From: Synechococcus sp. PCC 6312
Lineage (GTDB): Bacteria; Cyanobacteriota; Cyanobacteriia; Thermosynechococcales; Thermosynechococcaceae
Assembly (NCBI RefSeq): GCF_000316685.1
Contig: NC_019680.1
Coordinates: forward strand, 2,837,407 to 2,861,406
DNA length: 24,000 nucleotides
Reading direction: 5' to 3'
The notes under the pieces were generated by a model. The model was not told the origin of the DNA and ran no database searches. It saw only the letters and a list, made by a program, of their open reading frames with translations. Positions 2,293 through 23,116 of the stretch are shown in pieces. Both the position numbers and the translations under genes were made by a program. The stretch's first letter is position 1; each line of letters starts with the position of its first letter.

Positions 2293-2370
2293 CGGGAGAG
2301 AGAGAATTGAACGCACTTGTGTTGGCGAAGTCGAATATCTTGGCCTGTGGTACCAATAATTTCTTTTTGT

Positions 2371-2672: not shown

Positions 2673-2737
2673 TATTTTTATCCTTTAGCGACACTATTCC
2701 GCAGGACATTTTGATTTCCTTGACCTGGGAAGGGGAC

Positions 2738-3106: not shown

Positions 3107-3139
3107 GCGACCTCCAAAGAAAAAAAGAACAGCGTCTCT

Positions 3140-3660: not shown

Positions 3661-3663
3661 CAC

Positions 3664-3688
3664 AAAAAAAAGCCAGCCGAAGCTGGCC
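3664..3688 (-). terminator. Intrinsic terminator (minus strand) of the 3695-3985 gene
   Basis: GCCAGC-CGAA-GCTGGC hairpin with a preceding A8 on plus (U8 after the hairpin on minus). Confidence 0.8.
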
Positions 3689-3694
3689 TATTCG

Positions 3695-3985
3695 TTACCG
3701 TTGTTGCTGCTGTTCTACTTTTTGATTTTCTTGAATATTTTCTGTAATTGCCACAAAACCGCAGCTAATTGTTAGAACTAGAACTGGCCAAACCATTTTT
3801 TCTACTGTTTTGGCGTAGCTGTATCGCCTAGCCTTAAAATTTTTGCCCATTTCTACTTTTAATCTAACTTTTCTAAATTTACGATCTAATTCATTCCATT
3901 CTTTAACTAGACCGTTCCAACTGAAATCAAATACTTTAACGGTACGTTTGCCGTTTTTATCGTCACGAATCATTGCTTTACGCAT
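3695..3985 (-). CDS. Small hypothetical protein with a C-terminal TM segment (96 aa)
   Basis: ORF track. Hydrophobic stretch MVWPVLVLTISCGFVAI. Flanked by M1 upstream and a terminator downstream. Confidence 0.7.
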   Translation of the reverse strand: MRKAMIRDDKNGKRTVKVFDFSWNGLVKEWNELDRKFRKVRLKVEMGKNFKARRYSYAKTVEKMVWPVLVLTISCGFVAITENIQENQKVEQQQQR

Positions 3986-4002
3986 TGTAATTTACCAACA
4001 CA

Positions 4003-4575
4003 ACGGCGCTTGGATAGCACAGCACGGAACCGTCCTAGATTTTCTTATCGCTCCCCGACCCTTGGGAGGGGCTGACGTTGCTTGCAACGGAAGGAAAGCG
4101 ATTAGAAAATGTTGGTCGGCACTGCCCTAGCAGTGAGGGAGGGTGAGCCTCGAACCCGACCTTGAAGGCTGTGCTACCTTGCAAAAGCCTGTGTCGGGGG
4201 GGCAGGGGGAAGTCACCCCCTTAGCACAACTGGAGCAGCCCCTTGGGGGGCGAATAGCGAGGGGGGAGAAAAGCCCGTCCGTTAGCGTTAGCGTGCCGTA
4301 AGGCAATTAGGACGATTCAGTTCTGACACTGTGGGCAGTGGCAGCGGGTGGGGTGCCGGGGCTGCGGCGATAAGGCTTGTGGTTTGCGAGAGATGTTTAT
4401 TCCGCAGGGGCGGCATTTGAGAGGGTTTGGGATAGGTTGCACTGGCCTGGGAAAGGCGGCCGGAAACGGCGACAGATTTTGATTTAGCGGGTAATGTTTA
4501 TTCCGTTTCCGGCCGCCCGTTAATCTTGGCGTAGTCTGGCACGGGAATGGGACGTTGTGAGGTTTTGCAACTCAC
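4003..4575. repeat. Structured repeat block D: M1 (4003-4185) + M2 (4190-4322) + M3 long form (4346-4417) + M4 (4455-4517)
   Basis: M1 outer helix TAGCACAGC (4015-4023) / GCTGTGCTA (4168-4176). M1+M2 are near-identical to block E except for a swapped apical hairpin. M3+M4 are near-identical to block C. Confidence 0.85.
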
Positions 4576-4603
4576 AAAAAAAAGACCGGCCTTTCGGCCA
4601 GTC
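4576..4603 (-). terminator. Intrinsic terminator (minus strand) of the 4612-4773 ORF
   Basis: GACCGGCC-TTTC-GGCCAGTC hairpin (one mismatch) preceded on plus by A8. Confidence 0.75.
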
Positions 4604-4611
4604 CCTTTTCT

Positions 4612-4773
4612 TTAGTCTTGACTTATAGACTTAGCCTCTTCTTTAGTTAGATAGATTCCGAAGTCTCCTTCTACTTCGACCCAGACTCCACCTTCTTCTA
4701 AAGCCGCCGCCTCGTCTTTGGTTAGATAGATTCCGAAATATTCATCTATCTGAAACCATTCTGTATATGCCAT
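4612..4773 (-). CDS. Candidate 53-aa acidic protein with an internal duplicated motif (below the ORF-track cutoff)
   Basis: Hand translation: MAYTEWFQIDEYFGIYLTKDEAAALEEGGVWVEVEGDFGIYLTKEEAKSISQD*. The motif (Y/D)FGIYLTK(D/E)EA occurs twice. A terminator follows directly. Confidence 0.5.
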   Translation of the reverse strand: MAYTEWFQIDEYFGIYLTKDEAAALEEGGVWVEVEGDFGIYLTKEEAKSISQD

Positions 4774-4779
4774 CTGGTA

Positions 4780-4990
4780 TTACCAAACTCTACGCCGGGG
4801 TCCTACAGGGGAGCCGACTGGTCAAGGGGTAAAGTGGAGGGCTGCGGAATAAATTTGATGTTACTAAGACTTGCCGCCCCTGTCTCCGCTTATTGCAGAT
4901 CACTCTTTGTTCTCAGGCGGCTTAGTCGCAGTTAATCAAGTTTTATGCCGTAAAGCCTGGAACGTACCTTGACCACCCTCCATCACAACG
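4780..4990. repeat. Divergent M1-like structured leader (block F)
   Basis: Shares the leader ACCAAACTCTACGCC with block A, and the helix GACTTGCCGCC…GGCGGCTTAGTCG with M1 of block B. Also contains GGTCAAGG/CCTTGACC and TGGAGGG/CCCTCCA complementarities in crossing order. Confidence 0.45.
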
Positions 4991-5187
4991 AAGGATATTT
5001 ATATTCCCTGTATAATAGAAAGGCAGAGTTGCCACCCAACGCGAACAACCACCCATCCGGCGACCCTTTACTGTACTTAGCGAAAAATGTTTAGAAAGGT
5101 AATTTCTTTGGGCGGGCCTGGGAGAACGAAACAGACGTTCACCCTTACATATCTTCCCTATTTGATATGCCGAAGTCGGAAGAGGAT

Positions 5188-5212
5188 AAAAAAACGGGCG
5201 GCAGAGCCGCCC
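5188..5212 (-). terminator. Intrinsic terminator (minus strand) of the 5221-5391 gene
   Basis: GGGCGGC-AGA-GCCGCCC hairpin preceded on plus by A7 (U-run on minus). Confidence 0.8.
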
Positions 5213-5220
5213 CATATTTT

Positions 5221-5391
5221 TTAGCATTTATATTTAATACTAAAATCATCATCCTCCTCTTCAACTTTCATATAATCAACAAACTCTTTATTCTTCATTA
5301 CTTTCTTTACAAACTTATTTACCTCTTTCAAACTAAACAAATATCCACACTCTTTCTCAAACAACTTAAACTTCACTTCATAATAAAACAT
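5221..5391 (-). CDS. Small AT-rich hypothetical protein (56 aa from ATG 5391; the ORF track extends to 5427)
   Basis: ORF track. The M1 repeat starts at 5410, and the conserved leader ends about 18 nt before ATG 5391, which matches the spacing at the 3985 start. I therefore prefer the internal start (MFYYEVKFKLFEKE…). Confidence 0.6.
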   Translation of the reverse strand: MFYYEVKFKLFEKECGYLFSLKEVNKFVKKVMKNKEFVDYMKVEEEDDDFSIKYKC

Positions 5392-5409
5392 ACAAACAAC
5401 CAAAACACT

Positions 5410-5745
5410 ACGGCGCTTGGATAGCACAGCACGGAACCGTCCTAGATTTTCTTAGCGGCTGGCTTGCCAGACGGTTAGAAAATGTTGGTCGGCACTGCCC
5501 TAGCAGTGAGGGAGGGTGAGCCTCGAACCCGACCTTGAAGGCTGTGCTACCTTGCAAAAGCCCGTGTCGGGGGGGCAGGGGGAAGTCACCCCCTTAGCAC
5601 AACTGGAGCAGCCCCTTGGGGGGCGAATAGCGAGGGGGGGAAAAAGCCCGTCCGATTAGGACGGTTCATTGGGGGGGGTTGGGGGGGGAACGCCCCCCTA
5701 ATCTGGTATGCAGAACAAAGTGACGCTACCAGATTAGGTCTGAAA
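5410..5745. repeat. Structured repeat block E: M1 (5410-5560) + M2 (5565-5668) + G/C homopolymer hairpin + 12-bp inverted repeat (about 5698-5740)
   Basis: Outer helix 5422-5430 / 5541-5549. The apical hairpin is replaced by GGCTGG-CTTG-CCAGAC. The inverted repeat is CCTAATCTGGTA…TACCAGATTAGG (12 bp perfect). Confidence 0.85.
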
Positions 5746-5827
5746 CTTCGGCATAGGAAAATAGCGAGAGAGCCAGTCGTGCCTTATTAAAATCCACGAA
5801 TTCTGTAAGTCTTACTGGTTGCTTGTT

Positions 5828-6733
5828 TCAGGCTGATTTCGGCATATCAGATTCTTGGATATATGGCATAACTTCGTGTAGGACTTCTTTCATAAGTTCA
5901 GACTCACGGAGGCTTCCGCAGATACCGCTATAGAGGTTTGGCTTCCATCCATTAAGTTCATCGCAGTAGATCATGGTGTTGCAATGAAGTTTGGCCATCA
6001 TGATCATATTTCTACGGATCATGGCCTTAATGGCCCACTTAATCTTGAGGTCATCTTTGAGGTGCAGTTGACTGACTGGACCGGACTTGCCAGGGAGGTT
6101 ACGAAGTTTGGATTCAATGCGGTAGTATGTCCATTTTTGGGTATTGTACTTGCGGATATTGGCATACTTAGGAGCGATCCATTCCTTTTTGAAGGACTGA
6201 ATGAGGGTCTTAATTTCGGGTTGGCTCCAGACTTTGATCGGCTTTGCCGACTTATGGATAACGAGCTTATCGCCTGTTAGCCATTCCGACTCGGTTTGGG
6301 TGACGATTTCTACGAAGGACTTGAGTTCGTTGTGAGAGAACTTGTAAGTATAGACTTCACGCCCACTCCAGTTTTCTTTCTGGCTTTTATTGCTGCTTTT
6401 TACATGGTCAGCAACGATTAGTGTTTTCTGGGCCAACTCCCATGCTTTTTTTAGGGTTTCGACTCGTTCCTCCCAGGTTTCGATCACGTTCAGAACATAG
6501 GTCATGGTTACAATATCGGCGGGTTCGAGTGGGGTGGGGAAGTAGTAGGGGTCATAGCATTTTGACTTAAAGCCAAGTTCATTCAGCCATTCGGTGTCTT
6601 TTCCATACCCGCAGCCAAAATCCAGGTGCGACTGGCTTGGGTGGATCATCATGTTTTTGATCATCAATCTGACGGTACTTGAAGGATGCTTTCGCTTTGG
6701 AGCAGACTTATGGCGATTAGACTTGATTAGCAT
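5828..6733 (-). CDS. Class I SAM-dependent methyltransferase, N-terminal domain, with an uncharacterised C-terminal half (301 aa)
   Basis: Motif I LDFGCGYGKD followed by an acidic-loop-like …CYDPY…. The substrate (DNA, RNA or small molecule) cannot be told from the sequence. Confidence 0.8.
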   Translation of the reverse strand: MLIKSNRHKSAPKRKHPSSTVRLMIKNMMIHPSQSHLDFGCGYGKDTEWLNELGFKSKCYDPYYFPTPLEPADIVTMTYVLNVIETWEERVETLKKAWELAQKTLIVADHVKSSNKSQKENWSGREVYTYKFSHNELKSFVEIVTQTESEWLTGDKLVIHKSAKPIKVWSQPEIKTLIQSFKKEWIAPKYANIRKYNTQKWTYYRIESKLRNLPGKSGPVSQLHLKDDLKIKWAIKAMIRRNMIMMAKLHCNTMIYCDELNGWKPNLYSGICGSLRESELMKEVLHEVMPYIQESDMPKSA

Positions 6734-7568: not shown

Positions 7569-7982
7569 TTACAGCGGTATCTGGTATCTCCGTTCAGGAT
7601 TCTTTTGTGAATGTGCCTTGTGACCATGACTCCGAGGTTGGAAGCCCATTTTTGTCATGATCAGTTTCCAGTTTCTGTCATGTCCAATTCTTTTTTTTGG
7701 CCATAGGCGACAGCAAATGGTATGGGCTAATTCATGGGCATAGACTTGGGGCAGTTCTGACGGGTTTTCGGAGAGTAGGGGTAGATTTAATTCAATTTTG
7801 TCTTTACTGGCTCTCCCGGCTGTTGTTTTAAGGCGAGTATTGTATTTAACGGTAATGGGTTTTTCGGTGATCATGGCGATTATTTTGGCTGAGAATTGAC
7901 GCTTCAGTTTTTCCATGATGCCTTGGTGAATTGTCCGGATTCTTACCTTAGTTTTCTGGTCAATTCCAACAAATATTAGCAT
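7569..7982 (-). CDS. SprT-like zinc metallopeptidase domain protein (137 aa)
   Basis: N-terminal …NTRLKTTAGRAS…IELN… and the HExxH motif YAHELAHTIC match the SprT-like family pattern. AAGGAG SD upstream. Confidence 0.8.
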   Translation of the reverse strand: MLIFVGIDQKTKVRIRTIHQGIMEKLKRQFSAKIIAMITEKPITVKYNTRLKTTAGRASKDKIELNLPLLSENPSELPQVYAHELAHTICCRLWPKKRIGHDRNWKLIMTKMGFQPRSHGHKAHSQKNPERRYQIPL

Positions 7983-8224: not shown

Positions 8225-8694
8225 ACATCCTAGCCGAAGGACAATAAAAAACTCTGGGTGTTAGCCAGAGCTTGGTTTTGGTTAGGAACCTCATCGCAGC
8301 CTATCCGAAGGTTAACCAAAAACCCCCACCATTTCTGATGAGGGCTTTTGATTGTCCATAACCTTGCCTGTAAGCACCTCATCCGAAGGAAAAGAAAAAA
8401 CCCTCATTATTCAATGAGGGAATCTTCCGTGTGTAGAGTTTGGTTTTATGACATCCTAGCCGAAGGACAATAAAAAAACCTCACCATTTCTGGCGAGGCT
8501 GGCCACCAAATGTATTCAGTTGTTGCACGACATTTTGTTACAACACAGTTTTTTTCTCCCTTCGATACAGCATTTGCACCAATCGCACTGAATTATTTTT
8601 GATACACCCCCACCGAAGGACAATAAAAAACCCCCATCGTTTGATGGAGGATTTTGTGTAGAGTTCTGGTTTTCTTCACCCGTTACCGCAGGAC
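8225..8694 (-). repeat. Tandem array of five to six ORF-less 'hairpin + T-run + ATTGTCCTTCGG' junction units
   Basis: On the plus strand, CCGAAGGAC (or CCGAAGGTT / CCGAAGGAA / CCGCAGGAC) occurs at 8234, 8305, 8383, 8460, 8613 and 8686. Each of the first five is followed by AATAAAAAA and a different hairpin (for example CCCTCATT-ATTC-AATGAGGG at 8401-8420). Confidence 0.8.
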
Positions 8695-8808: not shown

Positions 8809-10086
8809 TTAGAAGACATAGGCATAACCGTCTTTTTTGTGCATGGCTTTGCAGTATTTGTGGCTGATACCTGCCACTCTTCCAGTTGCCGTGGCTATGT
8901 CAAAACTGCCAGAGGCTCGACAAAGAACCCGACCCACATAGAAGCCGATTTTCTTGCCTGCCGTAACGGTCGCTCTGACAATATCGCCAGTTTGAAAGCC
9001 TTTATGAATCTGTACTCTGGACTTATGGCGAGTCGAAAAACCAAACTTGTCAGTCCCACACATCTGCCGTGTGCCGTGACCTTTGGCGGTAATGAGCAAC
9101 GGCTTTGAAGTCAGGACTTTGAGCGCATCAACCTGACCCACACAAGCGGCATCCAACCAATGAGCTTTGGGCAGGTCTAAGCGGGTGCGGTTGAATTTAG
9201 TTTGTCCACCCGTCCCTGTCGTGAGTGGCAACCCCGTCGCTTTCAGTGCATTGAATAACGCCCATCGGGTAGAGTTGACTGCTGCTGCATCCTTGAGAGG
9301 GGCTTTAGCCTTTCTCAGAATCCGTTGTAGTAACTCAGGCTTACCGAATAGGAAGTCTCGAATGTCCTGATTTCCCTTGCTTTGGTTACAGGCATGACAA
9401 GCCATTGTGAGGTTAGAAACTCGGTCAGTTCCGCCTCTCGACCTGGGGTGAATATGCTCTACTTCTAAAGGGACATCTTTAGTTCCACAGTAAGTACATT
9501 TTCTGCCCCACTTTTCTAGTAGATACTCTCTGACTTCGTAGCCTTGTAATTCCCCTTGTTGGTACTCAATGCCTGAGATTTCAGGATTTTGTAACTTCTG
9601 TAGGTCAAACCGTACCAACTCTTGAGCGATACTGCCAAGGGGAGCTAGATTTCTGAGCCGATTTACCCAGGTCAGCACCGTATCAACTCGATGTTTCAGG
9701 CTAGGAGCAAGCCAACCATCAGGGCGATTACGATTTAGAAAACGGGGCTGACGATAACGGGTTTTCCGATTTCGCCTCCCACGCCGTAATTGACGACGAG
9801 ACAGCAAGGCATCTTTAATCTGTTGCCCCCGGTGCTGCAATTCGGCTCCAAAGATGATTTTGTTGCCTTGTTTAATTGCAATTCCAGTAACTTTAGAACC
9901 GGGGTCTAATTTGAGTTCTAAGTCTTGCACGGGGACATCAGGATGAGCTTCTTTCAAGATGAGGGTAAATGGAAAACGACGATATACTGCCGCTTTTCCT
10001 TGGTTGAGTAGATGACGAGCCTTCCCAGGATGAACGGGATCAAGCGGTCGTTTTTGGGTATCGAGAACAAAGATAAAATTGGACAT
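8809..10086 (-). CDS. iscB: IscB RNA-guided nuclease (OMEGA system; RuvC-HNH-RuvC with an N-terminal PLMP domain), 425 aa
   Basis: PLMP-type N-terminus VLDTQKRPLDPVHPGKARHLL. RuvC-I LKLDPGSKVTGIAI. Arg-rich bridge helix RRQLRRGRRNRKTRYRQPRFLNR. HNH CTYCG…EVEHIHPRSRGG…CHACNQSKGN. RuvC-III HWLDAACVG. ATG at 10086 with a GGAG SD; the track's GTG at 10155 lies in the omega-RNA region. Confidence 0.93.
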   Translation of the reverse strand: MSNFIFVLDTQKRPLDPVHPGKARHLLNQGKAAVYRRFPFTLILKEAHPDVPVQDLELKLDPGSKVTGIAIKQGNKIIFGAELQHRGQQIKDALLSRRQLRRGRRNRKTRYRQPRFLNRNRPDGWLAPSLKHRVDTVLTWVNRLRNLAPLGSIAQELVRFDLQKLQNPEISGIEYQQGELQGYEVREYLLEKWGRKCTYCGTKDVPLEVEHIHPRSRGGTDRVSNLTMACHACNQSKGNQDIRDFLFGKPELLQRILRKAKAPLKDAAAVNSTRWALFNALKATGLPLTTGTGGQTKFNRTRLDLPKAHWLDAACVGQVDALKVLTSKPLLITAKGHGTRQMCGTDKFGFSTRHKSRVQIHKGFQTGDIVRATVTAGKKIGFYVGRVLCRASGSFDIATATGRVAGISHKYCKAMHKKDGYAYVF

Positions 10087-10340
10087 TGAAAGTCTCCGTA
10101 AAACGGGTAATGTGTTCCTCGCCAATGTTTTTAAGGCTTGTTTGGCTAACGACACTGCTTTACCCCTCGTAAGGCTGTTTAATCGCTAACGACAGAGCTA
10201 CAAACTGGAAAGCATTTGTAGGTGTCATGACCTTAAAAACGTAGTCAGTCAAGACTTAGGCTGGTCAACTAACTGAAGCTAGAGGCATGAAGCCCCATTA
10301 CTTCAGTGCGGGGTGCTGACTCAGACTGAAAGACCGTAGC
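10087..10340 (-). ncRNA. Putative omega-RNA (HEARO-type) scaffold of the IscB element; 5' end and guide not resolved
   Basis: Position only. IscB omega-RNAs are encoded directly 5' of, and overlapping, the iscB start. The region is ORF-poor with local hairpins (for example CTTCAGT…ACTGAAG at about 10272-10310). I could not verify the consensus structure by eye. Confidence 0.55.
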
Positions 10341-11086: not shown

Positions 11087-11686
11087 TCAGCGGTTCATTC
11101 TACGGAAGTCCCAAGGTTTTATCTGGTCTGACTTCCAGACACCAACGCCTTCTTTTCGGGCTTCTTGTTCGGCTTGATCAACTTTGGCAAAACTAGGGCA
11201 GTTATTAGCGAACTTGCGGTAAGCGTAGGCCATGCCTTTGCGGGTCATGGTTTCTTGGACAAGGGTATTGCCCGTCCAGACTTCAGCGACCTTACGGCCA
11301 TAGCGGTCAGTGTTGGTAATGCGAAGGTCAACACGGTAGTCAGCTTTTTTTAAGATATTGCGGAGTGTATTACGGGATGCTTCGCCCAAGGGTTGTTTAA
11401 GTTCTGGTGCGTCAATACAGGCGAAGCGGACTCGGATTTCTTCGTTGCCATTGGTGGCTCGGATGGTATCGCCATCATGGATAGAGCGTTGAACAACTTG
11501 CCATTCGGTTAGTCCAGTTCTGGTTTGGGTGGGTGTTCCGATTTCGTTGACAACGGCTTCACGTTCGGATGGACTAATCATACGTCCACTAGTTGTTCTT
11601 GGATTGAGGGCTTCAATCTCGGACATTGGGACAGCTTGCGATACGCATCCGGTTAGGAAAATTGCTAGGAGTGGCCAATAACGCAT
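11087..11686 (-). CDS. Secreted thermonuclease (staphylococcal nuclease/SNc fold) lipoprotein, 199 aa
   Basis: Lipobox LTGC in MRYWPLLAIFLTGCVSQ. SNase core …DGDTIRA…IRVRFACIDAPE…GEAS…RYGRKVAEVW…. Confidence 0.88.
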   Translation of the reverse strand: MRYWPLLAIFLTGCVSQAVPMSEIEALNPRTTSGRMISPSEREAVVNEIGTPTQTRTGLTEWQVVQRSIHDGDTIRATNGNEEIRVRFACIDAPELKQPLGEASRNTLRNILKKADYRVDLRITNTDRYGRKVAEVWTGNTLVQETMTRKGMAYAYRKFANNCPSFAKVDQAEQEARKEGVGVWKSDQIKPWDFRRMNR

Positions 11687-15919: not shown

Positions 15920-16279
15920 TTACCTACCTTGCTCAAGGTCTTCGGAAACGATAGATGCAACCGACTCGGTGCTGAGTGTGACGGGTTGCTTTGATGCGTG
16001 GGTGTAGATGGAGTTGTACTCACCCTTTTCGCCTGAGTAATTCAAACATAGTTTATAGCCGTGTTTGGCCAGCTTGCTTTTGGCTAACTGGAACAGGATG
16101 GAACTAAGGGTATCCTTATTTAGCCAGAGGACTTCATGGCTGGTTGGATTTAAGAACCGCGTCCCGTAGTTGAGTCCTTTGTTTTTATCTCCACTCATGA
16201 CGGTGCAAATATGCTTGTATCCCTCAGCAATCAGACCTTTCCTTGCTTTCTCAAAGTTTTCACGGGTTGGTTGAATCAT
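15920..16279 (-). CDS. Hypothetical protein (119 aa)
   Basis: ORF track. The junction-motif variant CCGTAGGAC (16312) lies upstream. Confidence 0.7.
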   Translation of the reverse strand: MIQPTRENFEKARKGLIAEGYKHICTVMSGDKNKGLNYGTRFLNPTSHEVLWLNKDTLSSILFQLAKSKLAKHGYKLCLNYSGEKGEYNSIYTHASKQPVTLSTESVASIVSEDLEQGR

Positions 16280-16338
16280 GGATTTTTATCCTACTTTTTG
16301 GGGTTGTTATCCCGTAGGACTTTTGTTTGATCTGTTGT

Positions 16339-17583
16339 TTATAGTGCTTCTTCAGCCGGTCGCAGTTGAGCATCTGGGTTCAGTTGATTTTCACCAGTGG
16401 TAAGGATTTTGATTTGCTCTAAGTTTTTACGCATAGCGGCCCAGGCTTTGAAGGCATTGCTGGTGTATTGGTCGGCTTGGTTGACACGGCTGAGGTATTG
16501 ATCAGTTGACCCTGCGCCGTAGCGATAGGTAACTTCGTAGAGCTTGAGCCGTGTTTGCTCACGGCGAGCGAGTTCCTGGGTTGCTTGAAACTCTCGTTTG
16601 AACTGGTCGAAAGCAAGAACATCGAGCGTCACCTTATCTCGGATACGACCGGCCAGTTCTGCTCGGTTGCGTTGCAGTTCAGCGACTTTGATTTGGAGGT
16701 CGCCAATGGCGAGGCTGCGGGTAGCAGCGGCTTGTGAGCCACCAAATAAGTTAGTGATGAGTGGGATACCGATGAGGCTGAGAGCTTCCGCAATCCCTGT
16801 GCCGGTAAACAGACGGCCAATCTTATCGAAGGGCGATTCAGCGGTTGGCCCTGATGTGGTGACGGTTGTTTGTCGTCCGGTGAATGGGTCGGTGACGACC
16901 TGGGTGGTACCGAGTCTGGCACTTGGCCCAGCATCAAAGCTGAGATAACTCTGAAGTGCAGGGGTAAAGACCTCTAAGTTAACGAGCTTCTGGTTATTGC
17001 TCTGTGCTTCTTGGATGCGAGTATTGGCTTCTTCAATCCGGGCATCTACTTCCTTCAGGATTGGAGAGCGAGCAATCGCTAACTCTTGCAGCCGCTTTAC
17101 ACATTCCTGGGTACTGTCCAGGCAAGGAAGGCCGCCGAGTATGCCCTGCCATAGGTCGTTATTGAACTGAAACCGAAGCACTTCCTCCATGCTGGCAGCG
17201 GTTTGTCCGCCCTGAAATGGATTTTCAGGCAGTCGTGGCGCAGCGACTGGCGTTCTGGCTGGTATGGTTCCGCCACTTGGCATGGTTGTTGTACTTGGCC
17301 TCACACCACTTGGGACGGGAATGTTAACCGGCCGTGTGCTTGGTTGGGCTGGTCTGGTTGTTGACCCTGGACTGGTTGGGGTGGGGGGTGGGGATTCTGG
17401 CTCATCAAGGGTGGGTGGTGCGACTTCGCCACCACCGCCATCATCATCGGTTGTGATGACTGCTGGTTCTTCAGCTTCAGCGGGTTGGCTATTGGGCTGT
17501 GCCTTGGATGTCAAGGGTAAGCTCAACACGAATGTTAGTATCAGACTGCTCAAGCCAACGGATACGAGTGACTTTACCTGCAT
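16339..17583 (-). CDS. Secreted TolC/OEP-like coiled-coil protein with a Pro/Thr-rich linker (414 aa from ATG 17583)
   Basis: Signal peptide MQVKSLVSVGLSSLILTFVLSLPLTSKA|QP. Two OEP-like helical repeats (…ARSPILKEVDARIEEANTRIQEAQ… and …GAGSTDQYLSRVNQADQYTSNAFKAW…). The family assignment is by eye and tentative. Confidence 0.7.
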   Translation of the reverse strand: MQVKSLVSVGLSSLILTFVLSLPLTSKAQPNSQPAEAEEPAVITTDDDGGGGEVAPPTLDEPESPPPTPTSPGSTTRPAQPSTRPVNIPVPSGVRPSTTTMPSGGTIPARTPVAAPRLPENPFQGGQTAASMEEVLRFQFNNDLWQGILGGLPCLDSTQECVKRLQELAIARSPILKEVDARIEEANTRIQEAQSNNQKLVNLEVFTPALQSYLSFDAGPSARLGTTQVVTDPFTGRQTTVTTSGPTAESPFDKIGRLFTGTGIAEALSLIGIPLITNLFGGSQAAATRSLAIGDLQIKVAELQRNRAELAGRIRDKVTLDVLAFDQFKREFQATQELARREQTRLKLYEVTYRYGAGSTDQYLSRVNQADQYTSNAFKAWAAMRKNLEQIKILTTGENQLNPDAQLRPAEEAL

Positions 17584-18439
17584 AGGGACTCCTGACAGTG
17601 GATAGGGATTGTAATTGACTTTCGATCTGGTCTTTCTGGGTTTGCAGTTGGGCAAGTTGGAACGTCTGTTCCTGAACCGCACGGTCTGCATCTATTTGGG
17701 ATTGTTGGGATTGGGCTTGGAGCTTGGCCAGTTCTAACTGGTGCTGGTACTCGGTGTATTGGCGTTGCTGTTGCGCTCTGACTAACTTAGCGTTGGCCAT
17801 ACTGACCGCAGCGACTTTGTTGTTGACCATTTCCTTGGCAATTTCGACCTGTCGCTGCTCATGCTCTAAGACTGGTGGTGGAACTTCGCCTCCCATTGTT
17901 TGTAGAACGCCCATTTTCCGTTGTTGCTGGTTAAGAGCTTCCTGGGCTTGGTTTAGTTCGAGTTGCGCTCTTTGAACATCTGCTTGCTCTGATAGGTAGT
18001 CGGGGGATGGTAGTTGCCGGATTGTCATGGGTTGGGGTCGGTTTACCTGTCGGGCTTGCATCCGGTTAATTTGGACGGCCAGTTGCTGCTTCCGGTAGGT
18101 GAGTACCTCCTTGGCCTTGGCCCGATCAGCGAGGATTTGATTTCGTTGGATCGTGTCGCCCTGCCGCACCTTGAGGTCGCTTGGGTCAGTGATGGAGAGT
18201 TGGATTTTGAACCGCTTTGGGTTCTCGGTTCGTGTTCCCTGTGGTTCCGTTCCTGGGTCTATTGGTTCCGTTGTGTCTGTCGGGGGTTCGTCCATATCTT
18301 CATCTGCTGATTGAGCGATGGAGATATTAGGGATGATGATCGTATGGCTCATCACGAATAGGGTGGCCGAGATTGCACCGATGGCAACTAAGCCATTCAC
18401 AATTTGACCGAGGGTAATTTTGGCAATGAACTTTAGCAT
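17489..18439 (-). CDS. HlyD-like membrane-fusion / periplasmic adaptor protein (316 aa)
   Basis: N-terminal TM segment. Lipoyl-like half-motifs LKVRQGDTIQRNQILA and SPYAGKVTRI flank a long Gln-rich coiled coil. Confidence 0.8.
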   Translation of the reverse strand: MLKFIAKITLGQIVNGLVAIGAISATLFVMSHTIIIPNISIAQSADEDMDEPPTDTTEPIDPGTEPQGTRTENPKRFKIQLSITDPSDLKVRQGDTIQRNQILADRAKAKEVLTYRKQQLAVQINRMQARQVNRPQPMTIRQLPSPDYLSEQADVQRAQLELNQAQEALNQQQRKMGVLQTMGGEVPPPVLEHEQRQVEIAKEMVNNKVAAVSMANAKLVRAQQQRQYTEYQHQLELAKLQAQSQQSQIDADRAVQEQTFQLAQLQTQKDQIESQLQSLSTVRSPYAGKVTRIRWLEQSDTNIRVELTLDIQGTAQ

Positions 18440-18442
18440 GGT

Positions 18443-19570
18443 TTACTCTGCCAATGGTAAGAGAGTGGGTTCGATTGGGATAACGTCATGGGAATGTTGC
18501 TCTGCCCGTTGGTAGTAAGGAATAATGTCGGTCTGTTTCGCATCATTCCCAAAGCGGACAAGGGCTTGCAGGGGCTTGAGGGCTGAGACTCTCGTAGCGG
18601 CAAAGCGAAACTTTTTGGCTACCTTCTCAACCTCGACCTGATCCACAGGCAAGACAATCTTGGTGGCTGTATTACTGAGAACGTCTGGGCTAAGGTGACG
18701 CTCCGACTGACTAGCTACGACAAGATTCAGGCCGTACTTACGCCCGTCACAGACAATCCGATCCAGGGCAGGAGACTTACTGAGTTCCTTGGCTTCATCA
18801 ATGAAGATGAATGTTCTAGGGGTAGCAGCTTCACCATAGAGGCGATGGTTATCCATCAGTTGCTTGGCCAGACTTTCGGCGGCAATCGCCCCGATTTCTG
18901 GGGGTAGTTTCTGCATATCTACCCGAATGAGTGGATGGTTAAATGGCATATTAGTCCGATTGAAAATGCCATAAGTGAAGGTAGCCGCTAACTTTAGCTT
19001 CAGCTTCTGCGACTCTTTGCAACCATCCCTGCAGCGTTGCTCCAGTTCGTTTTGGACATGGCTGAAGTTGGGTGGTTCATTCCGCCAGGTTTCGACACTT
19101 TTGATTCCGAATCGGGCATAGAGTTCCCCTAGAACATCAAGGATTAGACCTTCCTGGTTTGGGCCAATCTGTAGGTTACGTTTCAGGATTTGACCGACCG
19201 TAATAGCTTGGATTTTAGGGCCGCCGCCTTCCGGGTCAAGGTTGAGCATCAGTGGGTTAATGCCGTACTCACTGTTGGCATGGAGCGGGATATGTTTCTC
19301 ATGGGGTAGGTACTGGTCGCCATGAAAATCAACAATGATGATTTGGCATTCTTGCTTTTTGAAAAGCTCCCAAGCGATTGCTTTGAGCGTCTGCGTTTTG
19401 CCACTGCCACTGGCTCCAATAATTGCAACATGGCCATTGGGTAAGTCGTTGTAGTTCCAGTGGGTGTTTGTACCCAAATGGATGCCATTGCTATTGAGGG
19501 TTGTCACTGATGATGTTGACGTTTTTTGAAAGGGGACTAAGCGTGGGCTTGGCAAAGTACGGGGGGGCAT
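18443..19570 (-). CDS. HerA/FtsK-superfamily (DUF87-like) P-loop ATPase (375 aa)
   Basis: Walker A GASGSGKT. Walker B FIFIDEAKEL. …GRKYGLNLVVASQ… is typical of HerA/DUF87 ATPases. No TM segment. Confidence 0.85.
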   Translation of the reverse strand: MPPRTLPSPRLVPFQKTSTSSVTTLNSNGIHLGTNTHWNYNDLPNGHVAIIGASGSGKTQTLKAIAWELFKKQECQIIIVDFHGDQYLPHEKHIPLHANSEYGINPLMLNLDPEGGGPKIQAITVGQILKRNLQIGPNQEGLILDVLGELYARFGIKSVETWRNEPPNFSHVQNELEQRCRDGCKESQKLKLKLAATFTYGIFNRTNMPFNHPLIRVDMQKLPPEIGAIAAESLAKQLMDNHRLYGEAATPRTFIFIDEAKELSKSPALDRIVCDGRKYGLNLVVASQSERHLSPDVLSNTATKIVLPVDQVEVEKVAKKFRFAATRVSALKPLQALVRFGNDAKQTDIIPYYQRAEQHSHDVIPIEPTLLPLAE

Positions 19571-19572
19571 GG

Positions 19573-20610
19573 TTACTCCTTGGGAACAACAGTACGGATG
19601 AGAATATTGCCAGTTACATCTGCACTGATGTTGGCCACATCTTGCGGTCTAGCAGATTTCAATCTGAGGATGCCTGTGTTATCCCTGGTGGGTTGAAACG
19701 TGACCGGATTATATCGGTCGATCAACGGGATTAAGTTTAGGCTCTCGCTATCGGCGACTGCAACCGTCCCGGTCAGGTAAGTCCGTTTTGGATACTGGTC
19801 TAAGTTGAGGTCTGAGATAGGTTGTTCTTCCAGTTGAACTTGTTTGCTTTCACTGGTCACGGCTGGGCCACGTTGGAGCCGGATACTGCCGATTTTGATT
19901 TGGGCGTTTTGAGACCGTCCGGCTCGGTAAAGGATACCGCCCTCACTTTGTACCAGTAGGTCGCTACCCGTTAGAGCTTGGACAACTTCAAACTTGTCTC
20001 TGATATTTTGCTGAGTAGCTTCATCCTTCCCAGAAATTTCGACATAGAGGATATTGTTCTGTCCTTTGGAGTTGACTTCTTCGATCACGCCTTCCGGTAG
20101 TCCGAGGAACTGGTTAAAGGCCATGACGATACCGCCTTGGGAGTTGATGTTGAGGATCAGTATCCCGATGGACAAGATAAAGGCAAAGACAAATGCTTCG
20201 GCAACTGAGTTTGTTCCCAGGCGTAAGTGCGGGTTGCCTGGGATCACCAGTCTGGCTTGACTGGGATAGAAGGCGGCCACTCCAGTCTTAGTGAAGACAT
20301 CACCAAACCAGCCCATGAAGTATCCAATCATTAAGGCTGCATAGACTGTGCCGTTGATCAGAAGGACGGGGCTAAGGATGACGGCCACGATTGCGGTTGC
20401 GATAAAGCTATGAGTGACAGAGCGATGCGGGAACTGACGTTCTAAGGTCATGCTGATTGGGAACAAGATGCGACCTGTCAATGATTTACTGGTATCCACA
20501 TCAGGGAGTTGTGAAGCGACTGCTGCCGTTAACAGGATGATTGGGTTACTACTTCCCAATATCCCTGCGACTGATGTGGCAGCGAGTACGGCGTGAGTGA
20601 TGGACTTCAT
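19573..20610 (-). CDS. Membrane protein: N-terminal DUF457/YdjM-like metal-dependent hydrolase domain fused to an unknown beta-rich C-terminal domain (345 aa)
   Basis: …THAVLA…QLPDVD…RSVTHS…WFGDVFTKTG… with 4-5 hydrophobic segments. The last roughly 170 aa have no recognisable family. Confidence 0.75.
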   Translation of the reverse strand: MKSITHAVLAATSVAGILGSSNPIILLTAAVASQLPDVDTSKSLTGRILFPISMTLERQFPHRSVTHSFIATAIVAVILSPVLLINGTVYAALMIGYFMGWFGDVFTKTGVAAFYPSQARLVIPGNPHLRLGTNSVAEAFVFAFILSIGILILNINSQGGIVMAFNQFLGLPEGVIEEVNSKGQNNILYVEISGKDEATQQNIRDKFEVVQALTGSDLLVQSEGGILYRAGRSQNAQIKIGSIRLQRGPAVTSESKQVQLEEQPISDLNLDQYPKRTYLTGTVAVADSESLNLIPLIDRYNPVTFQPTRDNTGILRLKSARPQDVANISADVTGNILIRTVVPKE

Positions 20611-20837
20611 GACTCTGGTTCCATCTCCACGCAGATTAAGGTGGTGTAGCCTTCGTTTTTTCCATCAAACGACACAATGCCTTGGCCAGACATTTGCTCT
20701 ATGAGGGCATTCATCACGCCTTCGGCCACTGCCATTCGGTTTTTGAGGGGATCAGACGAGCCAACGGTGACAGTGAGTTTGACCGTTTCTACCGTTTCGA
20801 TGGTCGTTCCGGGTTTGTATTTGAGCATGAGGGTCAT
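20607..20837 (-). CDS. Small hypothetical protein (76 aa)
   Basis: ORF track. 4-nt overlaps with both neighbours. Confidence 0.65.
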   Translation of the reverse strand: MTLMLKYKPGTTIETVETVKLTVTVGSSDPLKNRMAVAEGVMNALIEQMSGQGIVSFDGKNEGYTTLICVEMEPES

Positions 20838-21061
20838 AGCACTTCTCCTAGATTCATGTCCCGGTAGGACTTATCGACAATCTTGGCGTTCCAGTTTTTG
20901 GTCTTGGCTTCTAGTTCTATCTCCCAAACTTTGAGGTAGGGGCGCGACAGCAGGGGCGCATTACCGCGTATTCGATAATATTTTTCAAGCAGTGTTTTGG
21001 TCAGTAGTTGTTTGTAAGACTCTGGTAGGTTGCTTCCTTGGCAGAACAGCACTGTTTCCAT
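20834..21061 (-). CDS. Small hypothetical protein (75 aa)
   Basis: ORF track. 4-nt overlap with the downstream gene. Confidence 0.65.
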   Translation of the reverse strand: METVLFCQGSNLPESYKQLLTKTLLEKYYRIRGNAPLLSRPYLKVWEIELEAKTKNWNAKIVDKSYRDMNLGEVL

Positions 21062-21064
21062 GAT

Positions 21065-22024
21065 TCATCGCCCCAAGTGTCTTGATTTTCTTGGCATAGC
21101 GGTCACAAGCAGTCTCACGACACCGACTGTAACGGTGAGGATGCCGCCCATGAGGTAAAGGCTGGTGCTATTAAAGCCAAGGCCGATGAAGCGGACAATG
21201 ACAAAGCACAGCATGACAGCTATCAGGAATGGAGTCCCGTCTATCCATTGCGTATGGTCGGGCGATAGGTCATCCAGACCGAGATATTCTTCCTTGACGA
21301 CTCGCTTGGCCAACATCGGATTACCGCCACATCGTTCTTGAAGTTCAGCGACCTTGGCAGGGTCTAAGTCAATGCCAAGGTCTTGGGCGGTTTCATACAT
21401 GATTTGCCGAATCCACTTATTTTCGAGCGGTGGCAGTTCGATTCGGGGTAGCCGAATGAAAATGTCTTTGGGCGGCGGGTGGGTGGCGAACAGGAGGATA
21501 TGCTGATTCTTCTTGTGTAACCGTTCAAGCCAGTACCGGAATGTGGCGGCTATTTTATGAGCGTCATCAAAGATGAGGAAGGCCAGGTTATCTTGCAACC
21601 ACTGAAGAACGGCATCCTGTAGTTCTTGGATGTTCATCCGTTTCCCTTCCAAGTTGTAGGTATCTATCCCGAGCGTTTCAGCGATTTCCATCATGTTGAC
21701 CCTGACGGTATTGGGGGTAATGAGGCAACAACGGAAGCCTTCATCGGTTAATTGCTTGTGGACACTTTCGGCTAGGTAGCTCTTTCCGACTCCAACTTCG
21801 CTGACGACCAGGAGGCTGCTGTCTGCTTTTAGTGACGCAACGATGTGATCGAAAATTGATCGTCTATACAGACGGCTAGGAAGGGATTCTTCTGATGTGA
21901 TATTTACGGCTCCAAGTGACTCGGACTCGCCCGTTACTTGGTCAACGGCGTAGGTATAGAGTCGCCTGGTACCGTCTTTGAGGTTTTTAATGTGTCGTCT
22001 GATAGATTTTGCCACTGCTAACAA
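21065..22024 (-). CDS. AAA+/P-loop ATPase with two C-terminal TM helices (319 aa; TTG start per track)
   Basis: Walker A SEVGVGKS. Walker B FLIFDDAHK. C-terminal hydrophobic FLIAVMLCFVIVRFIGLGF and LMGGILTVTVGVVRLLV. Confidence 0.8.
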   Translation of the reverse strand: MLAVAKSIRRHIKNLKDGTRRLYTYAVDQVTGESESLGAVNITSEESLPSRLYRRSIFDHIVASLKADSSLLVVSEVGVGKSYLAESVHKQLTDEGFRCCLITPNTVRVNMMEIAETLGIDTYNLEGKRMNIQELQDAVLQWLQDNLAFLIFDDAHKIAATFRYWLERLHKKNQHILLFATHPPPKDIFIRLPRIELPPLENKWIRQIMYETAQDLGIDLDPAKVAELQERCGGNPMLAKRVVKEEYLGLDDLSPDHTQWIDGTPFLIAVMLCFVIVRFIGLGFNSTSLYLMGGILTVTVGVVRLLVTAMPRKSRHLGR

Positions 22025-22643
22025 ACCTCTTAAATTCAGCGACCATAGAACTGGAGCAACTTTTCCCGGTTTGATTTTTAACGAAGGTTATGAGTTCGTC
22101 ATACTTGCGAAGCTTGTTGTGCTGCCAAGCGATGTAGAGGAGGCCAAAGACGGTGCGCCTACGGCGGAGGTCGCAGAGCTTTCTGTGGTTACAGTGGAAC
22201 TCAAAGGGTATGGGAGTCTCCTCGATGATGCGTTGCCGTTCTTGATAGGCCTCGTGTTTAGACTTGGGCTTGGGTCTGGGTTTAGGTTTAGATTTTTTGT
22301 CAGGCTTTTCGAGTTCGGTTGGGATAAAAGAGTGTTGGAGGAAGGGAAGCCACCAATGGGGGTTATGGGGCCGGTGTTGTTCTAATGTGGCTTGTGGTAG
22401 GAATCGAGCTTGAGGTTGTGGTTCTTTATCATCCCTTGCAGGCATGAGTTGGAGTTTAGCGGGTGGGAGAAGGGGGATGGGGTCATCACCAAAGGCCTTA
22501 ACGGCTTCCCAAGCGGGTTCGATAGTGGTTTGGATGAGGGTTTCTGCCTTATGTCGGATTGCAGTTCCCCACCGTTCGAGAGTATTAAGGGTAGATCGGT
22601 AAATCTGACCCAATGTAATCTGCTGCCAGGGCGTGTTGTTCAT
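21987..22643 (-). CDS. Hypothetical protein with a Lys/Pro-rich central linker (218 aa from ATG 22643)
   Basis: ORF track (TTG at 22658; ATG at 22643). Overlaps both neighbours (38 nt and about 59 nt). Confidence 0.65.
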   Translation of the reverse strand: MNNTPWQQITLGQIYRSTLNTLERWGTAIRHKAETLIQTTIEPAWEAVKAFGDDPIPLLPPAKLQLMPARDDKEPQPQARFLPQATLEQHRPHNPHWWLPFLQHSFIPTELEKPDKKSKPKPRPKPKSKHEAYQERQRIIEETPIPFEFHCNHRKLCDLRRRRTVFGLLYIAWQHNKLRKYDELITFVKNQTGKSCSSSMVAEFKRFVSSGKIYQTTH

Positions 22644-22926
22644 GCTTGTTCGCCTCAAAGATATGGATACCGATTTCGATAGTGCTTGCGAGTAGGAGGA
22701 TGATCCCGACGAGTTTGTAAAAGCGGGATTTGTTGATGATGAAAGATTTAATAATTCCAGACTGGACGAGGTTAGCGGTTTGGACTCTCACCTGGCTATA
22801 AGAAAGGTCTGTCATTTTGCAAAGGGTATTGCGATCACAGACCTCCTGATTTTCAAGAACGCTCAGGATTCGCTCTCGCGTCTGCCGCCCTTGACTGAGT
22901 TTCTTTTGATTGAGTTTTGTGAACAT
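22585..22926 (-). CDS. Winged-HTH (MarR/ArsR-like) protein with a C-terminal TM segment (113 aa); first gene of the operon
   Basis: RERILSVLENQEVCDRNTLCKMTDLSYSQVRVQTANLVQSGII is wHTH-like. It is followed by the hydrophobic FYKLVGIILLLASTIEIGI. Confidence 0.7.
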   Translation of the reverse strand: MFTKLNQKKLSQGRQTRERILSVLENQEVCDRNTLCKMTDLSYSQVRVQTANLVQSGIIKSFIINKSRFYKLVGIILLLASTIEIGIHIFEANKHEQHALAADYIGSDLPIYP

Positions 22927-23052
22927 AAATAGCGCTTCAAAACTGGCTATATTTTAAGCCAGAAATTATAATCGGGCCAAAAAACGGGCCATAATTTATC
23001 TGGTGATTCTAAAGCCTTATTATTAAAGGATATTTATAACTGTCATTAACGC

Positions 23053-23094
23053 CTCCTAAGTGCTAGGCCGTGGGTTCGACTCCCACCAGTCCCG
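23053..23094 (+). tRNA. 3' portion only of a class-I tRNA (anticodon-loop-like CUCCUAA, so Arg-CCU-like); probable att direct repeat at the island boundary
   Basis: CTCCTAA | GTGCT | AGGCC | GTGGG-TTCGACT-CCCAC | CAGTCCC | G fits the layout anticodon loop, stem 3' strand, 5-nt variable loop, T arm, acceptor 3' strand and discriminator. No matching 5' acceptor strand (GGGACTG) or D arm occurs upstream. Confidence 0.6.
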
Positions 23095-23116
23095 TCCCTT
23101 ATCTATGAATATGTTC

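Follow-up and report, generated by a model that had tools for sequence, protein, structure and literature searches.

What may a gene set do that combines an ATPase of a DNA- or protein-pumping superfamily with a periplasmic adaptor and a TolC-like protein, and holds none of the usual transporters? The question is raised by a locus of Synechococcus sp. PCC 6312 in a 24,000-nucleotide stretch of contig NC_019680.1 (positions 2,837,407 to 2,861,406 of the forward strand), called the window below; positions are those of the window, or of the contig where prefixed with C1. The locus encodes a membrane-anchored AAA+ ATPase, a fusion protein of the YdjM/DUF457 membrane family, a soluble FtsK/HerA-type ATPase, a HlyD-like adaptor, and an OEP/TolC-like protein. 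The module is most plausibly an element-borne DNA translocator across the cell envelope, a reading that we hold tentatively. Its fuller form, held less firmly, is that of a new DNA-transfer apparatus for two-membrane bacteria, in which an FtsK/HerA motor and an AAA+ loader would work with a YdjM protein, a minimal adaptor, and a single-repeat, possibly hexameric TolC-like duct. The genes, their families, order and conservation, the mobile-element context, the gene fusions, and the absence of any conventional pump were observed directly.

Extent and conservation of the module

Four minus-strand open reading frames (ORFs) form the center of the locus (Table 1). The genes for the YdjM fusion and the FtsK/HerA-type ATPase are separated by 2 nt, and those for this ATPase and the adaptor by 3 nt, while the adaptor and OEP-like genes overlap by 95 nt. 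Reading of the ORFs confirmed the coordinates, short spacers, and overlap on which the original prediction, made from the nucleotide sequence alone, was built. The OEP-like frame is open up to 17691; the start at 17583 is more plausible, because the signal peptide of the resulting protein is then N-terminal. An overlap of 68-95 nt in different frames was seen between the adaptor and OEP-like genes in all four annotated loci checked. Its unusual length and conservation suggest translational coupling.

The original prediction ended with these four genes, and the unit proved to be larger. A second copy, diverged in sequence, is located 1.18 Mb away in the same genome (C1 ~1,674,528-1,681,500; L017:6529-13498), and its nucleotide identity to the first is 75-80%. 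The block common to both copies covers about 7 kb of the window (15935-22968). Upstream it adds a winged helix-turn-helix (wHTH) gene, a gene for a basic protein of 223 amino acids (aa), the AAA+ (AAA_22) ATPase gene, and two small ORFs, and downstream a 119-aa ORF. In the second copy the gene for the FtsK/HerA-type ATPase is broken by a frameshift and a stop codon, and the remaining genes are open. For every main gene, synonymous divergence (dS) between the copies is ~1 and the ratio of nonsynonymous to synonymous divergence (dN/dS) is ~0.1. The genes are therefore real and subject to purifying selection, and the two copies do not stem from a recent duplication but are old.

Conservation was assessed by grouping the ORFs around the FtsK/HerA-type ATPase gene into families by BLAST clustering at 86 related loci; presence counts use only loci with enough flank on the relevant side. 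In dozens of loci the genes follow one fixed same-strand order, AAA+ / YdjM fusion / ATPase / adaptor / OEP-like. All five are present in this order and on one strand in 34 of the 55 loci with both flanks, and four of them in 16 of 55. Taken singly, the adaptor is found in 63 of 64 loci and the OEP-like gene in 44 of 64 on the downstream side, while upstream both the YdjM fusion and the AAA+ ATPase are found in 59 of 66. The recurrence of the genes beyond this genome, named in advance as a point on which the original prediction turned, was thereby observed both on plasmids and in dozens of cyanobacterial loci.

The FtsK/HerA-type ATPase has about 500 homologs, and all those with a named source are cyanobacterial; several are annotated as FtsK, as VirB4-like, or with a "type IV secretion system DNA-binding domain". 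At least 31 plasmid records contain a near-full-length match to it (tblastn), and the best 29 listed are all cyanobacterial. The carriers include Synechocystis PCC 6803 pSYSX (two copies) and plasmids of Synechococcus elongatus, Microcystis, Gloeocapsa, Stanieria, Nostoc, Anabaena, Calothrix, and Fischerella. At three plasmid loci the RefSeq annotation reads ATP-binding / metal-dependent hydrolase / DUF87 (or type IV secretion system DNA-binding) / HlyD or hypothetical / TolC or hypothetical. The four module plasmids inspected were typed as non-mobilizable. A further 80 genomic loci are cyanobacterial, save a few from unlabeled or probably mis-binned metagenome-assembled genomes.

In a sample spread evenly over the phylum, the YdjM fusion occurs in 31 of 401 cyanobacterial genomes and 23 of 155 genera, and the module is absent from both same-genus genomes. 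The distribution is patchy, as expected of a mobile trait. A ParA gene lies within 10 kb in 28 loci, and tyrosine recombinases are also frequent neighbors. A gene for a staphylococcal nuclease (SNase) follows downstream in 20 of the 45 loci with 6 kb of flank or more, and a gene for a secreted 216-aa protein in 20 loci.

No ABC, RND, or MFS pump was found among the scanned ORFs of the window or among the families conserved around the 86 loci. The claim that the adaptor and outer-membrane factor are not accompanied by a classical pump is upheld by this result, and a conventional pump gene just outside the operon was rejected as an explanation. Components of the cyanobacterial MPF_C system (PMC4027160) were also absent from the conserved neighborhood. 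A prophage lysis or spanin cassette was considered and rejected as well: the unit has two ATPases, the contexts seen contain no phage structural genes, and there is no viral-contig match, a comparison of the YdjM-fusion alignment with viral contigs having yielded no relative.

Component proteins and their fused variants

The FtsK/HerA-type ATPase scores above the cut-offs of two families, DUF87 (44.1 bits; cut-off 23.2) and TrwB_AAD_bind (42.7 bits; cut-off 20.5), and under that of FtsK_SpoIIIE (21 bits; cut-off 24). Models of CedD, VirB4, HerA, TraD, TraG, and EccC match it only partially; the HerA equivalog models, with cut-offs of 800-970 bits, reach about 40 bits over short P-loop stretches. 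The best profile of PADLOC (v2.0, 2023) is mad8, which matches over the full length (1.8e-22) and is followed by DndH and HerA defense models. The closest solved chain is the ATPase domain of DptH (7es4, E 1.3e-17), and HerA and EccC chains also match. The Walker A motif GxSGSGKT (G52-T59) and the D258-E259 pair are invariant in 20 homologs. A hydrophobic segment was not found in any of 78 family members, and neither a HAS-barrel nor a DNA-recognition (gamma or wHTH) or extra C-terminal domain was detected. With 375 aa, compared with ~500-600 aa for HerA, the protein is, to judge by its sequence, a bare FtsK/HerA motor core and not HerA proper. The original assignment to soluble HerA/FtsK-type ATPases stands, since profile searches gave no reassignment; the view of this ATPase as the only energizer does not, as the AAA+ ATPase (PF13401) is also encoded. 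In eight loci a GIY-YIG nuclease domain (PF01541) is inserted in-frame between the two halves of the P-loop core, giving ATPases of 470-490 aa; this may be an insertion of the homing-endonuclease type.

The inner-membrane component is a fusion protein. Its residues 1-153 match PF04307 (YdjM/DUF457; E 3e-22, 79.4 bits against a cut-off of 29), in agreement with the DUF457-like membrane domain proposed earlier. This polytopic domain spans residues 1-157, and ~190 residues follow the match. Residues D37, D39, H62, R63, H67, and D104 are invariant in 37 sequences, and H6 is kept in at least 90%. An alignment-based AlphaFold2 (AF2) model with a predicted local distance difference test (pLDDT) of 87 places five membrane helices ahead of a beta-rich domain with two lobes (186-343). 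Of these lobes, the first (subdomain 170-251) matches the C-terminal barrel of TrmB (Z 12.7, root-mean-square deviation 1.7 Å over 81 residues); WYL and Sm-like barrels rank far behind. In the model, Lys/Arg-rich loops and the invariant His/Asp residues share one side of the membrane. Based on the positive-inside rule applied to these loops, the His/Asp site is predicted to face the cytoplasm and the C-terminal domain the periplasm. An extra domain had been expected here and is present; its predicted periplasmic position does not suit the role of an ATPase dock. As a query on its own, the C-terminal domain returned three near-identical matches only, in a word-index search of low sensitivity for this domain.

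Escherichia coli YdjM is SOS-regulated, and to our knowledge the PF04307 family has no established function. The protein of the module resembles E. coli YdjM and PF04307 in its N-terminal 150 residues, which score far above the cut-off and keep the conserved His/Asp residues invariant. It differs in being fused to a beta-rich domain of ~190 residues with a TrmB-like barrel and in belonging to a five-gene module.

The adaptor is related only weakly to the membrane fusion protein (MFP)/HlyD family. The window protein has no Pfam match; the NCBIfam model NHLM_micro_HlyD matches it at E 5.6e-7, far under the model cut-off. Barrel-sandwich Pfam matches are found in 6 of 31 homologs, and its feature neighbors in the Atlas are HlyD/MFP clusters. 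Residues 5-23 form a hydrophobic segment, with none later. The invariant motifs G94 and P285..G288 probably mark split lipoyl (barrel-sandwich) halves placed around ~175 coiled-coil residues. Only ~25 residues remain after the second half, too few for the beta-barrel and membrane-proximal domains, which are therefore missing. By its motifs, the protein appears to be a truncated MFP/HlyD relative reduced to an anchor, a split lipoyl motif, and a coiled coil. The first description of a transmembrane-anchored HlyD-like coiled-coil adaptor was correct in the anchor and the coiled coil; the remaining HlyD domains are absent.

Similarity of the last component to TolC is also limited. The OEP model (PF02321) scores 20.3 bits on the window protein, under the cut-off of 22, and the match is partial and single (residues 288-392 against profile positions 81-183 of 187). 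The same model is matched at E ≤ 0.01 by 18 of 32 homologs (best 5.6e-7), and RefSeq labels the Nostoc and Microcystis homologs "TolC family protein". The N-terminal hydrophobic segment 2-26 represents the signal peptide, and a Pro-rich disordered stretch covers residues ~21-128. The Cys pair C154 and C161 is invariant in the family, consistent with an extracytoplasmic location. In an AF2 monomer model, one long helical hairpin set is seen, with helices 159-217 and 284-396 at pLDDT above 90 and a low-confidence middle part (217-283). Foldseek found nothing significant for this model, TolC-family chains aligning over ~110 columns at E 0.5-2. VIA gave Z 7.6-7.9 for MtrE, CusC, and VceC, values within the range of generic helical matches. 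The family profile returned nothing relevant among PDB sequences, and hhalign of the cyanobacterial profile with one non-cyanobacterial OEP protein of 204 aa gave E 0.18 (single-sequence target). Non-cyanobacterial counterparts are 204-241 aa long and have an unmarked PF02321 match. Between the two copies in this genome the dN/dS of the gene is 0.11.

From its sequence the protein is best described as a single-repeat OEP relative. The earlier label "TolC-like" survived the profile searches in that no reassignment emerged; it did not survive in the plural, since one OEP repeat is found where repeats had been claimed, and the score stays under the cut-off. Proteins of the TolC family carry two tandem OEP repeats per protomer, and the trimer forms a 12-strand barrel. 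With a single repeat instead of two, six copies would be needed for a TolC-like channel. If the protein forms a channel at all, it would be a hexameric one.

The AAA+ ATPase matches PF13401 (E 1.5e-9, 38.7 bits against a cut-off of 27). Its hydrophobic segments lie at residues 259-289 and 291-311, and all 64 family members have such a segment in the last 70 residues. The other genes of the unit are less informative. The wHTH gene is kept upstream on the same strand in 11 related loci and has a dN/dS of 0.09 against the second copy. The 223-aa protein has no Pfam, NCBIfam, or PADLOC match; proteins of 148 aa that are similar to its N-terminus are encoded in 19 loci. Small ORF sm1 is present only in the two copies of this genome, the AAA+ and YdjM genes abutting elsewhere, and sm2 is 39% identical between the copies. 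The 119-aa protein has no family match and was not found in other loci.

Variants outside cyanobacteria link several of these proteins physically. An exhaustive search with the YdjM-fusion profile gave 288 cluster representatives at E ≤ 1e-30. Among the best 150, 33 are long forms of at least 440 aa, whose extension carries the lipoyl / coiled-coil / lipoyl part of the adaptor; the adaptor profile or a Pfam lipoyl model matched in 11 of the 33. No hydrophobic segment lies between the YdjM C-terminal domain and the adaptor part in 25 of 30 long forms checked, in agreement with the predicted periplasmic position of that domain, and the YdjM-adaptor chain of protein P0261 continues into an SNase domain. 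Such natural fusions indicate that the YdjM C-terminal domain, the adaptor, and at times a nuclease act as one unit in one compartment, and the nuclease fusions point to nucleic acid. A full-length structural match was found in Bacteroidota (Atlas), and one long-form cluster includes a protein of Candidatus Poribacteria. Direct YdjM-SNase fusions were noticed in Atlas clusters from Actinomycetota and in a 737-aa metagenomic protein (P0261 / L115). To judge from these protein sequences, the whole YdjM family may act on nucleic acids at the membrane.

The non-cyanobacterial contexts are small integrative or replicative elements with the module parts in permuted order (Table 1). The permuted variants occupy the place that the transfer module has in small integrative elements, among a recombinase, an excisionase-like HTH protein, a LexA-like repressor, and Rep/primase genes. 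Beside the module, the elements otherwise hold only integration, regulation, and replication genes.

The host island and other genes of the window

In the genome under study the module lies on an integrated island. An intact tRNA-Arg(CCT) gene is located at C1:2699442-2699519, and an exact 53-bp repeat of its 3' half is found 161 kb away (C1:2860456-2860508), ~125 nt beyond the first module gene. In a sister genome (G001), the flank to the left of the tRNA and the flank to the right of the repeat are 95 nt apart, which represents an empty site. The direct repeat and the empty site thus identify the window as the far end of a 161-kb island (C1:2699442-2860508) in tRNA-Arg(CCT). A search of the island for integrases (PF00589 or PF00239) gave no match; next to the tRNA lies an ORF of 358 aa with no family match. 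The tRNA-proximal (left) end carries a type III restriction-modification system, a Schlafen-like gene, and a UmuC homolog. The genome, which is 99.99% complete, has no match to VirB4 (PF03135) and none to PF03432, the one relaxase family searched.

Other genes of the window were noted in passing. Between the module and the SNase gene lies a block of five plus-strand ORFs with no Pfam match (five scanned) and no PADLOC match (three scanned), which looks like an insertion into the downstream region of the module. An IscB-type gene follows, with a HEARO/omega RNA directly upstream on the same strand; together they look like an intact IscB-omega RNA unit (8809-10320) within the island. Further genes encode a class I methyltransferase-like protein and a small SprT-like zincin; the module plasmid of S. 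elongatus PCC 11801 also carries a zincin-like metallopeptidase gene. ArdC-type anti-restriction proteins are encoded on transferable plasmids, and the zincin genes would recall them. Positions 1-5800 contain no ORF longer than 199 aa and are filled with dispersed repeats of 110-290 bp. Further copies of these repeats occur only elsewhere in the island (C1 2.764-2.766 and 2.828-2.834 Mb), and none matches an Rfam family. Candidate roles are those of iterons, of genes for small RNAs, or of a region acting in cis in transfer or replication.

Table 1. Positions of the module genes and other features in the window, and loci with variant forms
Feature	Position	Strand	Basis or remark
53-bp exact repeat of the tRNA-Arg(CCT) 3' half, attR-like	23050-23102	+	island right end
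wHTH protein, 113 aa, first module gene	22585-22926	-	weak HTH_24/HTH_5 matches
223-aa protein, Lys/Pro-rich basic stretch	21987-22658	-	dN/dS 0.23
AAA+ ATPase (AAA_22), two C-terminal membrane helices	21065-22024	-	PF13401 match
Small ORF sm1, 75 aa	20834-21061	-	read from sequence; dN/dS 0.16
Small ORF sm2, 76 aa, doubtful	20607-20837	-	start and stop overlap neighbors as ATGA
YdjM/DUF457 fusion, 345 aa	19573-20610	-	PF04307 match, conserved residues, AF2 model
FtsK/HerA-superfamily P-loop ATPase, 375 aa	18443-19570	-	DUF87, TrwB_AAD_bind above cut-offs
Truncated MFP/HlyD-like adaptor, 316 aa	17489-18439	-	NCBIfam model, motifs, membrane helix
Secreted single-repeat OEP/TolC-like protein, 414 aa	16339-17583	-	OEP (PF02321) match under cut-off, signal peptide, AF2 model
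Adaptor/OEP-like overlap	17489-17583		also pSYSX 8529-8596 and Microcystis p1 and Nostoc pANSO36C loci (L019-L021)
119-aa protein, last gene common to second copy	15920-16279	-	94% identical, dN/dS 0.27
Five ORFs, 148-265 aa	11785-14871	+	between module and SNase gene
SNase homolog	11087-11686	-	PF00565, E 3e-18
HEARO/omega RNA	10107-10320	-	RF02033, 161.6 bits
IscB-type gene, 448 aa	8809-10155	-	RRXRR E 3e-75, HNH
SprT-like zincin gene	7569-7982	-	small
Class I methyltransferase-like gene	5828-6733	-	Methyltransf_23
Repeat pair	3436-3672 vs 4346-4584		94%
Repeat pair	3997-4285 vs 5404-5659		86%
Repeat pair	513-621 vs 693-801		98%
GIY-YIG-inserted ATPases	L094-L101		plasmids NC_019746.1 (Gloeocapsa PCC 7428), NC_019750.1 (Stanieria)
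Variant locus	L116		wHTH / AAA+ / DUF87 ATPase / 217-aa OEP-like (no Pfam match on record) / YdjM-adaptor fusion
Variant locus	L120		primase-helicase / AAA+ / DUF87 / OEP (241 aa) / fusion / serine recombinase
Variant loci	L121, L122		serine recombinase / HTH_17 / LexA-like repressor / small ORFs / Phage_rep_O / 304-aa protein / DUF87 / OEP (204 aa) / fusion
Variant locus	L117		tyrosine integrase / AAA+ / OEP (231 aa) / fusion
Variant locus	L119		PLD-type nuclease / AAA+ / fusion; ParA, ParG, integrase nearby
Variant locus	L114		AAA+ / fusion; ParA nearby

Candidate functions of the module

The proposed mechanism treats the module as the backbone of a mobile element, which would be mostly a plasmid in cyanobacteria and is here the tRNA-Arg(CCT) island, and its products as a five-part machine that would span the envelope. 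On the cytoplasmic face, the membrane-anchored AAA+ (AAA_22) protein would act with the soluble FtsK/HerA-type motor, presumably a ring. The YdjM protein would occupy the inner membrane, its His/Asp site directed towards the cytoplasm and its beta-barrel domains into the periplasm. The stripped-down adaptor, consisting of the lipoyl part and a long alpha-hairpin, would stand beside the YdjM C-terminal domain, and its hairpin would extend as far as the outer membrane and meet the small TolC-like protein with its single repeat. An SNase-type nuclease in the periplasm would often be an added part. The motor would then drive DNA of the element through the duct, out of the cell or into a neighbor, in a conjugation-like process or as "DNA donation". 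Topology, assembly, the DNA substrate, and the direction of transport are what we infer in this scheme. A conjugation-like or DNA-donation role is the best single reading because of the superfamily of the motor, the slot that the module occupies within elements, the nuclease fusions, and the lack of a type IV secretion system (T4SS).

Two transfer ATPases provide precedents, TraB of actinomycete elements and TdtA of the Thermus ICETh1 (PMC5365140). Like the module ATPase, TraB of the actinomycete integrative and conjugative elements (AICEs) is an FtsK-superfamily ATPase on small elements with an integrase, an excisionase, a repressor, and Rep, and neither a VirB4-type T4SS nor a relaxase is present (in this genome, no match to PF03135 or PF03432). 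In contrast, TraB combines membrane and DNA-recognition domains in a single large protein and serves single-membrane hosts, whereas the module has a bare 375-aa core, separate membrane, periplasmic, and outer-membrane partners, a two-membrane host, and no clt-like site identified. TdtA is a HerA/FtsK-family ATPase responsible for "DNA donation" (transjugation) in Thermus thermophilus; its element is inserted at a tRNA 3' end with 47-bp direct repeats, is absent from a sister strain, and has a nuclease gene nearby (PMC5365140). The island resembles ICETh1 in the insertion at a tRNA 3' end, the direct repeats (53 bp here), the empty sister site, and the nearby nuclease. The likeness of the ATPases is at the superfamily level: TdtA has 568 aa, the size of HerA, and is paired with a NurA-like nuclease, and no YdjM, MFP-like, or OEP-like partners have been described for it. 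Cyanobacteria, like the Thermus host, are a naturally competent lineage.

Compared with the type IV coupling proteins (VirD4/TrwB/TraD) and VirB4, the module ATPase shares a P-loop core that scores above the TrwB_AAD_bind cut-off and gives partial VirB4, TraD, and TraG matches, but it has no N-terminal membrane anchor, and VirB4 is missing from the genome. Unlike the module, the MPF_C T4SS of cyanobacteria is VirB4-based (PMC4027160).

Several observations weigh against transport of DNA by the module. No relaxase, oriT, or clt-like site was identified, the relaxase search being that with PF03432. The motor ATPase has neither a membrane anchor nor a recognizable DNA-recognition domain. The OEP-like gene is the sole missing part in 16 of the 55 loci with both flanks, and the similarity of both it and the adaptor to their own families is weak. 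The DUF87 ATPase was not seen beside the long forms at L114, L117, and L119, and therefore may not belong to the universal core. A periplasmic nuclease is odd beside DNA export. We found no reports of transfer of pSYSX-type plasmids. Finally, compact HerA-type ATPases are just as typical of defense, the nearest profile here being mad8 and the nearest chain DptH.

This last point leads to the strongest rival, an unlikely one in our estimate, namely that the module serves defense or exclusion on behalf of the mobile element. The HerA-type ATPase would sense or process invading DNA with SNase and YdjM as effectors, and the envelope parts would place the nuclease on the entry path of phage, conjugative, or transforming DNA. 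The ranking of the ATPase profiles, with DndH and HerA models behind mad8, agrees with such a role, as does MAD7-MAD8, described as a module of an ATPase and a nuclease (PMC13662399). The recurrent nucleases, whether adjacent or fused, are in line with the likeness to MAD7-MAD8 of the MADS system, DndFGH/DptFGH, and HerA-NurA-like pairs, where compact FtsK/HerA ATPases have associated nucleases. Defense genes are also frequent neighbors: pSYSX has an AAA/DUF2357/PLD block nearby, the S. elongatus module plasmid carries TIR and macro-domain genes, and the island has the type III and Schlafen-like genes mentioned above. However, the module contains no methyltransferase, NurA-like, or other MADS or Dnd partners, and its envelope partners are unlike those systems. 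Apart from the ATPase, PADLOC finds only generic P-loop, wHTH, and SNase domains in ten other neighboring proteins. The steady neighbors are replication, partition, and recombinase genes and not variable defense islands, and the missing relative in viral contigs also counts against defense. An MFP-like adaptor together with an OEP-like protein of the outer membrane is not known to us from any defense system.

Another scenario, which we regard as rather improbable, is type-I-like secretion or efflux of a protein, a peptide, or a small molecule with an unconventional inner-membrane engine; the substrate could be one of the small co-encoded proteins or another product of the element. An MFP-like adaptor with an OEP-like protein is the architecture of tripartite exporters, and RefSeq names homologs "HlyD family secretion protein" and "TolC family protein". 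Small ORFs lie in or beside the module, and the secreted 216-aa protein offers a candidate. The likeness to type I and tripartite systems (HlyB-HlyD-TolC, MacAB-TolC, DevBCA-HgdD) lies in an anchored adaptor, its putative lipoyl domain split by a long alpha-hairpin, encoded beside an OEP-family gene and an inner-membrane part powered by an ATPase. Here, however, the YdjM protein, the AAA+ ATPase, and the FtsK/HerA ATPase replace the ABC, RND, or MFS transporter, the energizers coming from DNA- or protein-pumping and AAA+ loader families. The adaptor is without its beta-barrel and membrane-proximal domains, the OEP protein has one repeat and not two, and other phyla encode adaptor and YdjM protein as one fused chain. 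No conservation of the small ORFs was seen outside this genome. Because the 216-aa protein and the SNase each carry an N-terminal hydrophobic or signal segment, they would not need the module for export, and the fused nucleases speak for nucleic acid as the substrate.

Plasmid maintenance, by tethering or partition at the envelope or by resolving plasmid DNA at division in the manner of FtsK at the septum or the nuclease-containing par stability locus of RK2, is the least probable: it fits the close linkage to ParA/ParB, Rep (CyRepA1), and Xer-like recombinase genes on plasmids, the FtsK family of the ATPase, and the DnaA/DnaC-like loader type of the AAA+ protein, but it is hard to see what periplasmic and outer-membrane parts would contribute to partition, integrated elements with no need of partition have retained the module too, and partition genes are already adjacent.

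Translocation of element DNA is, tentatively, the preferred reading. All the proteins can be placed, if in part loosely, in known superfamilies, and the logic of adaptor and OEP protein is that of tripartite exporters. The combination of a YdjM, AAA+, and FtsK/HerA engine with a stripped adaptor and a single-repeat OEP protein matches no described system that we found. The module itself is not described in the literature searched, which left most subscription journals outside its scope; within these bounds the result agrees with the original statement that no system of such composition is known, but does not prove novelty.

In a survey of 424 cyanobacterial plasmids, 88% were called "likely immobile" by the current model (PMC8600333). 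If the proposed function is true, it would explain the movement of many cyanobacterial plasmids without T4SS and relaxase genes, as well as that of small integrative elements elsewhere. Conserved units of several genes are few on cyanobacterial plasmids, and the module is among them; because plasmids of model strains carry it (pSYSX and several in S. elongatus), the hypothesis is easily tested. It would represent a further inner-membrane engine for adaptor/TolC-type ducts, beside the ABC, RND, and MFS transporters, and would give the widespread YdjM/DUF457 family a first functional context. The single-repeat OEP protein has the form expected of a TolC ancestor before the internal duplication. 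The reach of the finding extends beyond cyanobacteria, as small integrative elements of other bacteria carry the parts of the module in permuted and fused form.

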